From: a virus
Direction: 5' to 3' (one strand)
IMG/VR virus record: IMGVR_UViG_3300028840_002420
Span: 1 to 64,000 of that record
Length of the DNA: 64,000 bases
The translations under genes and the position numbers were made by a program. Positions 47,335-63,169 of this stretch are shown here, one piece after another. A model generated the notes under the pieces. The model saw only the letters and a list, made by a program, of their open reading frames with translations, was not told the origin of the DNA and ran no database searches. The first letter of the stretch is position 1, and each line of letters starts with the position of its first letter.

Positions 47335-47371
47335 CTGCCCGGTCGGGGCGGCCAGAATCCATGTACAATTT

Positions 47372-47445
47372 GCTGCGGTAGGCTAATTGGCAAAGCCAAC
47401 AGGTTTAGGCCCTGTGTACTGAGGGTTCGAGTCCCTCCCGCAGTA
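47372..47445 (+). tRNA. tRNA-Leu(TAG), short variable loop
   Basis: Acceptor GCTGCGG/CCGCAGT+A; anticodon arm ACAGG-TTTAGGC-CCTGT; T arm GAGGG-TTCGAGT-CCCTC. Confidence 0.85.
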
Positions 47446-47447
47446 AA

Positions 47448-47532
47448 GGGAGTGTGCGCGAATGGCTAAGCGTCCCGACTGTAAATCGGTGGACGGCTCA
47501 GATCCGTGGAGGTTCGAATCCTTCCGCTCCCA
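47448..47532 (+). tRNA. tRNA-Tyr(GTA)
   Basis: Acceptor GGGAGTG/CGCTCCC+A; loop CTGTAAA; long variable arm; T arm GGAGG-TTCGAAT-CCTTC. Confidence 0.9.
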
Positions 47533-47534
47533 AA

Positions 47535-47609
47535 GGCTGGGTAGCCCAACTGGAAGATGGCTACGGCTTCAAACGCCGTGAGATGAGGGTTCGAATCCCT
47601 CCCCAGCTA
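47535..47609 (+). tRNA. tRNA-Leu(CAA), short variable loop
   Basis: Acceptor GGCTGGG/CCCAGCT+A; ACGGC-TTCAAAC-GCCGT; GAGGG-TTCGAAT-CCCTC. Confidence 0.8.
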
Positions 47610-47682
47610 GAGCCCGTAGGCTAACAGGAAACGCCGGCCGGCTTAAACCCGGTGGTTCTGGGTTCGACTCCCAGCGGGCTTA
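47610..47682 (+). tRNA. tRNA-Leu(TAA), short variable loop
   Basis: Acceptor GAGCCCG/CGGGCTT+A; GCCGG-CTTAAAC-CCGGT; CTGGG-TTCGACT-CCCAG. Confidence 0.85.
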
Positions 47683-58695: not shown

Positions 58696-59715
58696 ATGTC
58701 GGACGAAGAACTGCCTGAAATCTCTGATGCTGACTTCGCGGCGATGACGGCTCAGGCTCACGAGCTGGGCATTCATTACACGGGGGTCGATCCGCTCGAG
58801 CTGCAGGCGTTTATCGCGATGGCTCAAGCGGATCGCGGACCAGAGCATCCTGTGCCGTGCTTTGGACTGAGCTACGATCCGAGTCATCGGCCGTGCAGGA
58901 TTTGTCAGATGCGGAATCCGTGCGCCGATGCTGACAAAAAGCCGCGGGTTGAGGTGGCGGATGTGCGGCGGCTCGAGCCAGTTCCGTGTGAAGCCTGCAG
59001 GAGGGGAGAGCTGAACATCGAGCTGCAGGATGTCGAGACGCACGAGATTCGGGACTACGGATGCTCGACCCATGGGTGTCAGAATACGCTGGGCATCCAG
59101 GTCGGGTGGGAAAGTGGCAGCCGTCCGACCGAGATTGTGCTGGGTGAGGCTGACGCCGATGAGGAAGCAGCAAAGGTAGAGACGGAGGCTGAAGCGGAGC
59201 CAGAGAAGCCCGCTCTTGAAGTGATCGATGGGGGAAAGTCCAAGCCCAAAAAGAAGGTCACGGTCAAAAAGCCTTCGGCGAAGAAAGCTCCGGCGAAGAA
59301 AGCTGCGAAGGCCCCAGCGAAGAAGGCCCCAGAGAAGAAGGCTCCAGCGAAGAAGGCTCCAGCGAAGAAGGCCCCAGCGAAGAAGGCCCCAGCGAAGAAG
59401 GCCCCAGCGAAGAAGGCCCCAACGAAGGCCGCGAAGAAGGCTCCAGCGAAGGCCGCGAAGAAGGCTCCAGCGAAGAAAATTACAGTCAAGCGAGCTCCGC
59501 CCAAGAAACCGCGAGCTGGGGCGGATCTGAGCTTCGTTTGGGATGGGCGTACTTACGATTCGCTAACGGCGATTGCGGAAGCAATCACCAAGACGCGGAA
59601 TTGGAGCGGGCCGAAGTTTTTCAAAATCCGGTCAGCTGATCTGCAGCCAGGGATCACGCTGAGCCGAGTTTTCGAGGGCGATGAGTACGTCGTCTCAGTG
59701 GAGAAGCGCAAATGA
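58696..59715 (+). CDS. Zinc-binding, histone H1-like PAKKA repeat and C-terminal DUF2924/RAMA-like domain protein
   Basis: PCFG...C..C....C and a second Cys cluster; more than 10 (P)AKKA units; F.WDG..Y.SL.AIA..IT...WSG..FF. Confidence 0.7.
   Translation: MSDEELPEISDADFAAMTAQAHELGIHYTGVDPLELQAFIAMAQADRGPEHPVPCFGLSYDPSHRPCRICQMRNPCADADKKPRVEVADVRRLEPVPCEACRRGELNIELQDVETHEIRDYGCSTHGCQNTLGIQVGWESGSRPTEIVLGEADADEEAAKVETEAEAEPEKPALEVIDGGKSKPKKKVTVKKPSAKKAPAKKAAKAPAKKAPEKKAPAKKAPAKKAPAKKAPAKKAPAKKAPTKAAKKAPAKAAKKAPAKKITVKRAPPKKPRAGADLSFVWDGRTYDSLTAIAEAITKTRNWSGPKFFKIRSADLQPGITLSRVFEGDEYVVSVEKRK
59281..59480 (+). repeat. 15-bp tandem repeats encoding PAKKA
   Basis: Repeated CCAGCGAAGAAGGC(C/T). 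Confidence 0.9.
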
Positions 59716-60266
59716 ACGGACATACAATCATCCGCGTCAAGAGCTTCGAGGACCTGATCCACAAGGTGATGGCGTTCAGCTCGTTTCGTATTCAGGATCG
59801 GCTTTACAGCGCGGAGTTATTGGTTCCGCAGCTGGTGATCGACAACAAGGATCTGCTCACCGAGTCGGCGATGTGTGCGGCTTTCGTGTTGTATTGGGGC
59901 CGAGAAGCTGCAGCGGCTCGACGGGCAAAGGCTCGGGTCGAGTCAGCCTATCGGACGTGGCGGGACCGGACGTGGCTGGAGATCAAGCACACGCCGTTGC
60001 CTGATACAGAAGGCAAGCCGAAGTATCCAACGGATGCTCACGTGGAGCGGCTGCTACACCAGCACCCAGAATACGGGGAATGGCGCGGCCGTCAGGACGA
60101 CGCTCAGGAAGCGGCCGAGAACGCCGAAGCGGTGCACCTGGCATTTCAGACCAAAGCTGAGCTGATCAAAAATCAACAGCGTCTGCTGCATGATGAGGCA
60201 GGCGGTCCTTACCAGATCGCGGAGGAGCCGCGACAGACTCAGGCTAGAGAGCCCAAAGTCAGCTAG
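59712..60266 (+). CDS. UvsY-like recombination mediator
   Basis: L.ID...L..E.......YW...PT...VE......EY...AF..K...; upstream of SSB and RecA. Confidence 0.55.
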
Positions 60267-60276
60267 GAGGAAATCG

Positions 60277-61791
60277 ATGTCTGGCGATCAACGTTACCCA
60301 CAGTACCCATTGCCTGGGCAGGGCGCTGTTCACGGGGCGGTAGCGCCTCATGGGCATCCCGAGCAGGCTCCACAGGGCCAGCCTCCACAGGGCCAGCCTC
60401 CACAGGGCCAGCCTCCACAGGGCCAGCCTCCACAGGGCCAGCCTCCACAGCAGGCTCCGCAGCAGGGTTATCCGCAGCAGTTTTCTCCAGAGGCCGCAGT
60501 TGCCGAGGGAGTGCTGGCTGGTGCCGGTTATCCGCAGCAGTCGCCGCAGCAGTCGCCGCAGCAGTCGCCGCAGCAAGCGCCGGGACAGCCGTGGAATCAA
60601 TCGGCTGACTTGCCTCCAGAGATGGCGGCAGCGATGGCCGATGCTGTGGATCAGTCCCGTGTCGGCGGGTCCGATGCGGATTTCTGGCGACCGAACAAGC
60701 CGAAGAACGTCGGAGAGACGGCGGAGTCGGTTGTCCGGGTGTTCCCGAGCTGGACGGGGGATCCGCGTATGCCGTTCTGGCATATGTCGTGGCGGCATTT
60801 TTGCATGGTCCAGCTAGAGGACGGCAGCAAGCGGCGCCAGCCGCGGAATTGCCCAGCCAAGAACGTACCGCCAGGCAGTCCACCGGGTCGTTGTGCTATC
60901 TGCGACCGACGCGAGCGGGCGTTGGCGGCCGGCGACGAAAAGACGGCGAAGACGCTCGAGCCGAAACCGCGGTTCTACATGAACGTGATCGACGCCAATG
61001 ACCAGGACGCTCATTGGAAGGTCGATCCGCAGACCGGGCAGAATGTGCCTGTCGCTAAGGTGTGGGATTGCACGCCGGGGCTGTTCAAGAAGCTGACGAA
61101 CGTCATTTCTGCTAAGGGCGCGATTTACGATATGCAGGTCGGGCGCTATCTCAAGGTATTCGCAGCGAAGCACGGCAGCGAGGACCGAGATGTGCGGTTC
61201 GATTGCACCGACGCGACGGATCCATGTCCGGTTCCGGCTGGATTCGAGCAGACAGTGTTGGTCGCGTTGGACAAGCTCGATTCGGCTCGCTCGTATGAAG
61301 AGCTGGCGAACGATATCGCGGCGACCTATCCCGATCCCCAGGGAATGCCCGTTGGAGGCGCGCAGCAGCCGCCGCAGCAGCCGCCGCAAGCTCAGCCCCC
61401 TTATGGGCCACCAGCGGGTTACGGACAGCCACAGGCGCAGCAGGGCTATCCGCAGCAGGGCTATCCGCAGCAGGGCTATCCGCAGCAGGGCTATCCGCAG
61501 CAGGGCTATCCGCAGCAGGGCTATCCGCAGCAGGGCTATCCGCAGCAGGGCGCTCCGCAAGGTCCTCCGCAAGGTCCTCCACAGGGCTACCCGCAGCAGG
61601 CCGCTCCGCAGCAGGGCTATCCGCAGCAGGGCGCTCCGCAAGGTCCTCCACAGGGCTACCCGCAGCAGGGCGCTCCGCAAGGCGCTCCACAGGGCTACCC
61701 GCAGCAGGGCGCTCCGCAAGGCGCTCCGCAAGGTCCTCCGCAGCAGGGCGCTCCGCAAGGTGCACCGGGAGGTGATGATGTCCCTTTCTAG
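60277..61791 (+). CDS. gp32-like single-stranded DNA-binding protein with Q/P/G/Y low-complexity arms
   Basis: FW.P......VR.FP...H...C......C.IC...RFYMNV.D...G..L.....G...VR; acidic DDVPF terminus; AGGAGG RBS. Confidence 0.75.
60370..60450 (+). repeat. 5 x 15-bp repeat (PQGQP)
   Basis: CCACAGGGCCAGCCT x5. Confidence 0.9.
61441..61545 (+). repeat. 7 x 15-bp perfect repeat (QGYPQ)
   Basis: CAGGGCTATCCGCAG x7, with degenerate copies to about 61760. Confidence 0.95.
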
Positions 61792-62003
61792 GGGATGGGA
61801 GCAGCACGCAGGCGCCGAAGCCCCCGGTTGATGGCCGGGGGATTCCGCGCTGCTGGGGCCGTTGGTGGGCCGACGATCGGACGTGTCGAGCTTGCTGGGT
61901 GGCTGAAGCATGCGAGCAGCAATCGCCGGGTGACAAGCCGCTCGAACCAGTCACTGGTGATCCCGCAGATCCTGAAGAATTGGAGCGGCAATTGCGGGGT
62001 TGA
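61782..62003 (+). CDS. Start-less Cys4 ORF, probable -1 frameshift extension of SSB
   Basis: Frame is open 61779-62003 and reads ...[23 protein letters not shown]...EELERQLRG; slippery C CCT TTC at 61782-61788; TGATG overlap with recA. Confidence 0.6.
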
Positions 62004-63169
62004 TGATGCCGAAACCTTCCAAAACGACCACCAAGAAAGCTACTAAGAAGGCTACCAAGAAGGTCTCGCCGAAGCGTAAATCGTCGGGCTCAAAAGCCAA
62101 GCAGGCGACACAGCTGCAGGTGCTCACTGAGGTTCACGATTACTTTTCGAATCACAAGCAATTCGCTGGCCAGCTGATCAAGATGGATTCGCTGGACAAT
62201 ACTGTGCCCGGCTACGTTTCGAGTCAGAGTCTGGCGCTGGATTGGATAGCGGGCAACGGTGGCTTTCCGATGTCGCGGGTGATCGATGTCAGCGGTGACG
62301 AAGGCACGGGCAAGAGTACGCTGGGTGATCACATCATGGCGGAAGTCCAGCGGCTTGGGGGTCACGCTTATTTGTGGGATCCGGAGAACGCTCGAGACAA
62401 CCGCTACCAGAAGCAGCTCGGAATCGCTCGGTCGCGAGCGGCTCAGATCGTCAGCCACACGATGGAGGATGGTTTCGAGCTGATGATCGAGATACTGCAG
62501 CAGCACCTGATGAAAGATCCTTTACGGCCTGGGATCATTCTTTGGGATACACCGGCCGGGACGCCAACACGTAACGAGGCCGATCCAGAAAAGACTGACG
62601 AGCGGATGGGGCCGGCGAAAATTATCCGGGGATACCTGCGTAAGCTGAATCAGATTCTGATGCAGACGCGTTGGGTCCTCTGCGTGATCAATCAGACCTA
62701 TCGCGGGCACATGCAGTCCGGACAGACCTACAAAGCTGTGTACGGGGGCGGTGGGATCCCGTTCTATTCGAGTTGTCGGCTGGAGATCAGTCACGTCAGT
62801 CGGTTTTGGCGCAGCTCTACGGACAAGTCGCGGGGAATGCCCCCGTTGGGGCAGACTGCGTGGGTGCGGAATATCAAAAATCGCTGCGGGATGCCGTGGC
62901 GGTCGCGTCAGATCTGCATCGAGTTCGGTCAGGGGATCGATAACTACTGGACGATGTTCGATACGCTCAAGGGCTACGGGGCGCTTGAAGTTAGCTCGAA
63001 CGGCTGGGCTGCTTTCGATCCGGACTGTTATCCGGAGCTGGCCAAGGCCGTACCAAAGAAGTGGCAGACCGGGTACCAGGGGCTCAAGCATTTCGTGGCT
63101 GAAGATCCGAATCTGTGGCCGCTGCTGATCGAGGTATATAAGTCGATTGAGGAGAGCTGGAATGTCTGA
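62003..63169 (+). CDS. recA: RecA/UvsX recombinase
   Basis: SLALD...G.GG.P..R...V.G.E.TGKSTL, D.E.A.D, INQ, GG....FYSS.RL, KNR...P......I.FG.GID. Confidence 0.92.
   Translation: MMPKPSKTTTKKATKKATKKVSPKRKSSGSKAKQATQLQVLTEVHDYFSNHKQFAGQLIKMDSLDNTVPGYVSSQSLALDWIAGNGGFPMSRVIDVSGDEGTGKSTLGDHIMAEVQRLGGHAYLWDPENARDNRYQKQLGIARSRAAQIVSHTMEDGFELMIEILQQHLMKDPLRPGIILWDTPAGTPTRNEADPEKTDERMGPAKIIRGYLRKLNQILMQTRWVLCVINQTYRGHMQSGQTYKAVYGGGGIPFYSSCRLEISHVSRFWRSSTDKSRGMPPLGQTAWVRNIKNRCGMPWRSRQICIEFGQGIDNYWTMFDTLKGYGALEVSSNGWAAFDPDCYPELAKAVPKKWQTGYQGLKHFVAEDPNLWPLLIEVYKSIEESWNV

Follow-up and report, generated by a model that had tools for sequence, protein, structure and literature searches.

A candidate −1 frameshift site at the C-terminal tip of a phage gp32-type single-stranded DNA-binding protein

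The first 64,000 nucleotides (the window, to which all coordinates given without a locus name refer) of the IMG/VR virus record IMGVR_UViG_3300028840_002420, the complete 113,207-bp genome, with direct terminal repeats, of an uncultured phage, contain on the + strand a gene for a gp32-type single-stranded DNA-binding protein (SSB; 60277..61791), followed by a gene for a RecA/UvsX-like recombinase (62003..63169, hereafter recA). The last two sense codons of the SSB gene, encoding Pro-Phe, form an in-phase slippery heptamer that abuts the stop codon, and the −1 frame leading from this heptamer to recA encodes a peptide with four conserved cysteines (the Cys4 module). Judging from the comparison of these sequences with those of related loci, a programmed −1 ribosomal frameshift probably occurs at these two codons, which would give rise to two SSB isoforms, a short isoform of 504 residues with a free DDVPF C-terminus, and a predicted long isoform of 575 residues carrying the Cys4 module. 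A pair of isoforms of this kind had been put forward in an original prediction made from the DNA of the window, and is strongly supported here, with the site, frame, and peptide found in six of six diverged loci, and the peptide lacking a start codon in four of them.

The slippery heptamer and the proposed −1 frame extension

The SSB gene ends in GAT GAT GTC CCT TTC TAG (61774-61791), within which the heptamer C_CCT_TTC (61782..61788, + strand) lies in phase and is followed immediately by the TAG stop (61789..61791, + strand). The −1 frame extension (61788..62003, + strand) comprises 71 codons, running from Leu-Gly-Asp-Gly to Leu-Arg-Gly, and a TGA that overlaps the recA start as TGATG (62001..62005, + strand). 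Re-reading of the sequence agrees with the original prediction on the final codons of the SSB gene, the phasing of the heptamer, and the length, start-less beginning, and TGATG end of the −1 frame. This frame is open over 61779-62003 and is closed just upstream of the heptamer by two stops, TGA TGA (61773..61778, + strand). Before the Cys motif it holds no ATG, GTG, or TTG, the first of these being GTG at 61899, and only an ATT at 61842. The motif itself (61851..61913, + strand) has the form C-x10-C-x2-C-x5-C (CWG...DDRTC..C.....C), with the spacings of seven and four residues originally given for it corrected to C-W-G-x8-C-x2-C-x5-C.

Profile scans provided five loci for comparison with the window, two from viral contigs (L006 and L007) and three from metagenomes (L008, L009, and L010), with RecA proteins 48–67% identical to that of the window; the recombinase has ~38 metagenomic relatives. 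In all five of these loci the SSB ends in [IV]-P-F-TAG, beyond which the frame at −1 relative to the SSB is open from the stop onwards and encodes a Cys4 peptide homologous to that of the window. The extension peptides of the relatives are 45–52% identical to that of the window, with 21 residues invariant, including the four Cys, D-R-T-C, and the C-terminal D-P-E-x-L-E-R-x-x-R-G. The number of codons separating the slip codon from the first Cys varies (21, 16, 18, 20, 17, and 17 in the six loci), indicating that several insertions or deletions have occurred in this spacer, all of which preserved the −1 relation and none of which introduced a stop. Over the full length of the extension, spacer included, the variability of third codon positions is ~2 fold that of the first two, a result towards which an alignment made on amino acids is biased. 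On this sequence evidence, the stretch between the SSB gene and recA is coding, and not a non-coding leader.

Ribosomes could not enter the extension from further upstream in the window, L006, L007, or L009, as a stop closes the −1 frame there 1–7 codons upstream of the site, this distance being 2–7 codons in the three relatives. L008 and L010 have no start for the peptide, but the −1 frame is open upstream of the site in these two loci. Between the SSB stop and the first Cys, no ATG, GTG, or TTG is present in four of the six loci (window, L007, L008, and L010). The zero frame is likewise open past the SSB stop in four of the six loci, and in the window it contains an 83-codon open reading frame (ORF) with an ATG (61795-62046), which begins in the SSB frame right after the TAG and runs into recA; its peptide is not conserved, and it is probably spurious. 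Stop codon reassignment or readthrough was considered and rejected, as it is the −1 frame, rather than the zero frame, that encodes the conserved peptide, and a suppressor tRNA was not found. The G+C content of third codon positions, compared by frame, was uninformative in the SSB–recA region.

A slipped ribosome would first read CUA, a rare codon (4% of Leu codons), which is replaced by UUA in two relatives. Both are rare Leu codons served by phage tRNA-Leu(UAG) and tRNA-Leu(UAA), and no role is claimed for them; the tRNA cluster of the window (47371-47682) comprises Leu(UAG), Tyr(GUA), Leu(CAA), and Leu(UAA).

The codons of the slip site show a striking constancy of their nucleotides. All six loci use CCT for the penultimate Pro, a codon accounting for 9–19% of Pro codons (a naive frequency product of ~3e-6), and all six have TAG as the stop, compared with ~24% of stops genome-wide. 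Among the 29 invariant Pro columns of the five alignable SSBs, a single codon is used throughout in only one all-CCG column and in this all-CCT column. Synonymous sites are saturated at this divergence, as none of the 31 invariant fourfold-degenerate columns of recA keeps the same codon across the six loci, and pairwise identity at these columns is 26–55%. The T of CCT is what would let tRNA-Phe re-pair from UUC or UUU to UUU following a one-base slip backwards, and with no other reason seen for the constraint, its constancy suggests that it is kept for this re-pairing.

The site is also rare within the genome. Across ~110 long + strand ORFs picked over the whole 113-kb genome, the SSB site is the sole in-phase copy of C_CCT_TTY, and the + strand of the window has a single CCCTTTC, a sequence that is under-represented over both strands, with four copies observed against 9.3 expected. 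The original prediction had looked to homologues for either a conserved heptamer or an in-frame fusion of the SSB with the Cys4 peptide. The former is borne out, with CCT-TTY-TAG present in the relatives and the X_XXY_YYZ rule satisfied in five of the six loci, and the latter is not, with no in-frame fusion found in word-indexed protein searches with the peptide alignment.

Candidate stimulatory elements, rival explanations, and the recA start

Upstream of the heptamer lies an internal Shine-Dalgarno (SD)-like element, GGGAGGTGA (61767..61775, + strand), the GGAGG of which ends 9 nt before the heptamer, as originally described. The duplex of this element with the anti-SD sequence (−14.3 kcal/mol) is the strongest of ~8000 sampled positions. 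Across the loci, an SD-like element situated at most 22 nt upstream falls within the top 2% of its own local background in four of six (window, L006, L008, and L010), and is ordinary in L007 and L009, although the Gly-rich coding sequence near the SSB tail is a confounder of this score. The distance from the element to the heptamer ranges over 3–14 nt. For comparison, GGAG or GAGG precedes ~70% of the genes of this phage.

Downstream of the heptamer, the stem at 61821-61841 reported in the original prediction exists, as the 9-bp GC-rich core of a long imperfect hairpin (~61794..61863, + strand) with a minimum free energy of −39.7 kcal/mol (z −1.6). The fold as a whole is no better than those of shuffled sequences (z −1.0 to −1.6), and its core begins 32 nt past the heptamer. 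Hairpins are present in four to five of the loci, being strong in the window, L010 (13 bp), L007 (12 bp), and L009 (z −3.3), with z scores over the six loci extending from −3.3 to +0.1.

In the mechanism proposed here, most ribosomes would terminate at the UAG and release the 504-residue SSB with its free DDVPF tip, and some, at whatever efficiency the site may confer, would slip one base back on C_CCU_UUC. The slip could involve tRNA-Pro moving from CCU to CCC in tandem with tRNA-Phe moving from UUC to UUU, or the P-site tRNA-Phe alone, with the UAG waiting in the A site. The slipped ribosomes would read CUA (Leu) and 70 further codons, resulting in the 575-residue isoform, in which the PF tip would be internal and the new C-terminus would consist of the putative Cys4 metal-binding module followed by the conserved DPE-LER-LRG helix. 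The likeliest stimulators would be the upstream SD-like GGGAGGUGA and the adjacent stop codon, to which the hairpin may add, and we suspect a main contribution from the neighbouring UAG, as a “shifty stop”, perhaps greater than that of the hairpin. Ribosomes completing the long form would terminate on the recA AUG (UGAUG), and could reinitiate there.

Several observations weigh against this interpretation. The site of L008 is A_CCT_TTT, which violates the X_XXY rule for the P-site tRNA, suggesting that a slip of the P-site tRNA-Phe at U_UUU_UAG would fit this locus better than a tandem slip; to our knowledge, C_CCU_UUC is also not among the well-studied efficient bacterial slip sites. The hairpin cores of the window, L010, and L007 lie 17–32 nt downstream of the site, with only weak outer helices at 5–7 nt, L006 and L008 fold no better than shuffled sequences, and no consensus RNA structure is formed over the six loci (−6.9 kcal/mol), the hairpins being conserved in neither position nor sequence. 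At this distance the hairpin cores are probably too remote for the classical role in frameshifting, and of the dnaX-type signal originally proposed, the heptamer and, in four of six loci, a strong SD-like element stand, such that the triad is only partly present. L006 (ATG), L009 (TTG), and L010 together with L006 (CTG behind a G-rich tract) could also yield a free-standing peptide. The comparison extends to six loci only, and an exhaustive phmmer search of proteins found one homologue of the peptide, the metagenomic protein P0058, with a weak N-terminal relation to SSBs.

The possible starts in these relatives raise the alternative that the Cys4 peptide is the product of a separate small gene, translated through non-canonical initiation (at the ATT at 61842 in the window, the CTG in L010 and L006, the ATG in L006, or the TTG in L009) or through 70S reinitiation following the SSB UAG, to which the close spacing past the SSB stop is suited. 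The L006 ATG and the L009 TTG are in frame and align with each other, and the CTG (L010 3759 and L006 3753) lies six codons past the slip site, where it is preceded by a G-rich, SD-like tract, situated after the TAG, that pairs with the anti-SD at −9.6 and −8.6 kcal/mol respectively, so that this codon might serve as a minor internal start in L010 and L006 alone. However, no candidate start is common to the loci, L008 lacks any before the first Cys, the window ATT has no usable SD, and the anti-SD pairing of the L006 ATG and the L009 TTG (−1.5 and −2.2 kcal/mol) amounts to no SD. Conserved residues are also found upstream of every candidate start, with P-x-P-P preceding both the L006 ATG and the L009 TTG, and a separate gene leaves the constant −1 relation, the stop-free spacer, and the fixed CCT and TAG unexplained. 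No separately called counterpart of the peptide was found in word-indexed searches of protein collections at “near” and “longer” lengths. A separate gene is thus unlikely, and the homologues do not conform to the arrangement, a gene with its own start and no slippery site, that the original prediction had named as contrary to a frameshift, with four of six loci start-less and CCT and TAG present in all six.

Three further explanations are each very improbable. The arrangement in the window could stem from an assembly or sequencing indel, in that lengthening the G5 run at 61837-61841 by a single G, for example, would place ATG 61831 in frame to read M-A-G-G-I-P-R-C-W-G, resembling M-R-P-D-G-V-P-R-C-Y-G of L006. 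The same out-of-frame ATG is nevertheless present in L010, within GAT GGT (Asp-Gly in the Cys frame), a D-G pair that five of the six loci keep and that is displaced in the window. The −1 arrangement is, moreover, common to six independent assemblies from different samples, leaving scarcely any room for the indel that had been raised originally as a possible source of error. The SSB–recA gap could alternatively be a structured non-coding RNA, such as a leader controlling recA translation, with the open −1 frame a by-product of high G+C. Whilst the GC-rich hairpins of most loci and the zero frame open past the stop would suit such an RNA, the identity of the peptides, with their invariant residues and most variable third positions, does not, and neither does the absence of a consensus structure or of any match of the gap to an Rfam family, which makes this reading highly implausible. 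As to transcriptional slippage on the C3/T3 run, by which the frame would change at the level of the RNA rather than the ribosome, a T5 run (CCTTTTT) is present in two relatives, and long A runs are the site of such slippage in Thermus dnaX. It usually needs runs of 7–9 or more, however, with those of 3–5 here being much shorter, and the conserved phase of the heptamer relative to the codons matters for the re-pairing of tRNAs and not for a polymerase, so that slippage by the polymerase would be very surprising.

The original prediction further held that recA lacks a strong SD of its own and may be translated in proportion to frameshifting. The window recA is in fact preceded by CGGGGT, which pairs moderately with the anti-SD (−5.9 kcal/mol), and in L006, L007, L008, and L010 a GAGG inside the last Arg-Gly codons of the extension forms the recA SD. 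With an SD of its own in the window and most relatives, recA probably does not rely on frameshifting. The extension ends in a stop that overlaps the recA start by one base (TGATG or TAATG) in four of six loci and by 8 nt in L007, with a gap of 3 nt in L009; with overlap or abutment in all loci, some coupling through termination and reinitiation is plausible. Neither a promoter nor a terminator was found when looked for in the SSB–recA gap.

The SSB, the Cys4 module, and the recombination operon

The SSB start at ATG 60277 is backed by the alignment of the relatives and by the AGGAGG SD that precedes it. The protein matches PHROG family phrog_1192 (“single strand DNA binding protein”, E 9.8e-8), with no match to any Pfam family, gp32 included, at E 0.1, and none in a sequence search of the PDB. 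An AlphaFold (AF2) model of the core, with a predicted local distance difference test (pLDDT) score of 65–90, was matched by Foldseek to RB69 gp32 (2a1k; E 3.6e-8, template modelling score 0.58), as well as to T4 gp32 (1gpc) and to 8gme, identifying the upstream gene as that of a gp32-type SSB. Residues H174, C192, C206, and C209 are invariant in the five loci aligned, and are presumably His/Cys3 zinc ligands like those of T4 gp32.

The core is flanked by long arms rich in Pro, Gln, Gly, and Tyr, the C-terminal one of which is devoid of Lys and Arg over ~150 residues. In the window these arms contain (QGYPQ)n repeats, in place of a repeat type seen in relatives, where the disordered arms of the SSBs of L006 (2359-3735), L009 (2103-3695), and L010 (2317-3741) carry 2–4 copies of S-P-D-G-[KR]-x-x-L-x-N-N-Q-W-V-P, located to either side of the core. 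Among cultured phages, Pseudomonas phage nickie and its kin have the closest relatives of the SSB core, at 25% identity. In the nickie locus (NC_042091.1 56557-63081, from a genome of ~112 kb) the gene order is SSB, exonuclease, and RecA, and the SSB ends in an acidic tail, LDDLLED, followed by a terminator hairpin, without a Cys ORF.

The tips of the SSBs in the six loci, DDVPF in the window and GDGIPF, DSGIPF, SDDIPF, GGGVPF, and DPDVPF in the relatives, correspond to the free C-terminus of the bacterial type, in which acidic residues are followed by [IV]-P-F. The C-terminal tip of E. coli SSB is a hub that recruits repair and replication partners, which recognise its free carboxyl end. The free DDVPF tip is of the kind through which bacterial SSBs dock partner proteins, and by this likeness may serve partner docking here as well; in the long isoform such docking would be lost, and a switch of partners is a possible outcome.

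The Cys4 module has no family match in Pfam, PHROG, or PDB sequences, and an atlas search returned unnamed clusters only. Its C-x2-C-x5-C spacing is reminiscent of the Fe-S cluster sites of DNA enzymes, and the module may bind metal, as the pattern of its cysteines suggests. The conserved C-terminal peptide of the extension, DPE-LER-LRG (61968..62000, + strand), in which D, P, E, L, E, R, R, and G are invariant, is predicted to be helical; the AF2 model of the extension peptide, a poor one with a pLDDT of 55, has a helix at residues 65–73. P0058, the homologue found by phmmer, is a protein of 460 residues with three tandem in-frame copies of the module, of the CWGEHEADDEGC..C.....C type (hhalign probability 90.7%). 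The N-terminal part of P0058, which precedes these copies, gives a weak phrog_1192 (SSB) match only, and is not used here as an argument for a fusion; the locus encoding the protein was looked for and not found.

Two genes upstream of the SSB, the H1-like/DUF2924 protein contains a paralogous C-[FY]-G-...-C-x2-C-x5-C motif (58858-58923), such that two proteins of one operon share the module. This motif, P-C-[FY]-G-L-S-Y-D-...-C-R-[IV]-C-Q-[LM]-R-..-C, is kept in the window and in all four relatives whose loci extend far enough upstream, being located at L006 1000-1065, L007 808-873, L009 619-684, and L010 936-1001. The recombination operon consists, in order, of the gene for the H1-like/DUF2924 protein (58696-59715), a gene for a protein of 184 residues (59712-60266), the SSB gene, and recA, the product of which matches PF00154 (E 4.5e-28) and phrog_97 (E 4.9e-37). 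The window has a G+C content of ~60%, and its gene-like long ORFs are on the + strand.

Beyond the six loci, searches at the nucleotide and contig level gave little. No relatives were found by blastn of the region against GenBank phages, by a single-sequence scan of viral contigs, or by profile scans of genome contigs with the peptide and RecA alignments, and tblastn of the peptide against GenBank phages gave matches at chance level only. Scans of viral contigs with the peptide and SSB alignments returned only contigs already in the set and two contigs that end before the end of the SSB gene, a degenerate DNA pattern for CWG..DD..C..C gave nine chance matches in viral contigs, and no Cys motif was found upstream of recA in the more distant RecA loci L012-L022.

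Relation to known recoding systems

The mechanism proposed for the SSB gene is of a known kind, that of dnaX and of the G/GT tail chaperones, and its use at the C-terminal tip of an SSB was not found in the literature, where a search gave no report of frameshifting, or of an alternative C-terminus produced by recoding, in any SSB, gp32 and the bacterial SSBs included. We lean slightly towards the broader view that phage gp32-type SSBs carry a family-wide, undescribed recoding switch, which would exchange the free PF docking tip for a Cys4 module, possibly one that binds an Fe-S cluster, in a fixed fraction of the SSB. Recoding placed exactly at the tip of the SSB would give one gene two modes of interaction in a set ratio. 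A conserved module of 71 residues has been missed by gene callers in this phage group.

In E. coli, the tau and gamma forms of dnaX arise through a −1 frameshift at A_AAA_AAG, with an SD-like element ~10 nt upstream and a stem-loop ~6 nt downstream. The SSB gene resembles dnaX in being a replication gene with an in-phase X_XXY_YYZ heptamer, in its two predicted isoforms sharing an N-terminal body, and, in the window, in having an SD-like element 9 nt upstream together with a downstream hairpin. In contrast to dnaX, in which the shift truncates the protein to the shorter gamma, the SSB shift would add 71 residues, the heptamer C_CCU_UUC abuts the stop, and the hairpin lacks both conservation and the classical spacing.

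Among tailed phages, −1 frameshifting is a textbook feature of the tail chaperones, with the G/GT type found in lambda and many others. As with G/GT, the SSB site would be a phage −1 shift near the 3′ end of an upstream ORF, adding a C-terminal extension from an ORF without a start, and its position is conserved across very diverged phages. Unlike G/GT, the SSB belongs to a recombination operon and not to tail morphogenesis, the site takes up the final two codons of the gene, and what would be added is a small Cys4 module.

A stop beside a slippery codon is also seen in the +1 frameshift of prfB at CUU_UGA (PMC10885494). The SSB site is similar to such a shifty stop in that the zero-frame stop, always UAG, directly follows the slippery codons, which suggests that slow termination aids the slip, and differs from prfB in that the direction is −1 rather than +1 and no autoregulatory logic involving a release factor is evident. 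The protein is likewise a composite when set beside known SSBs. It departs from T4 and RB69 gp32 in lacking a Pfam gp32 match and in the very great length of its low-complexity arms, yet its core fold and the positions of its invariant His and Cys3 residues match theirs, and its C-terminus, D-D-V-P-F, is like the tip of the bacterial SSBs (…DDDIPF).

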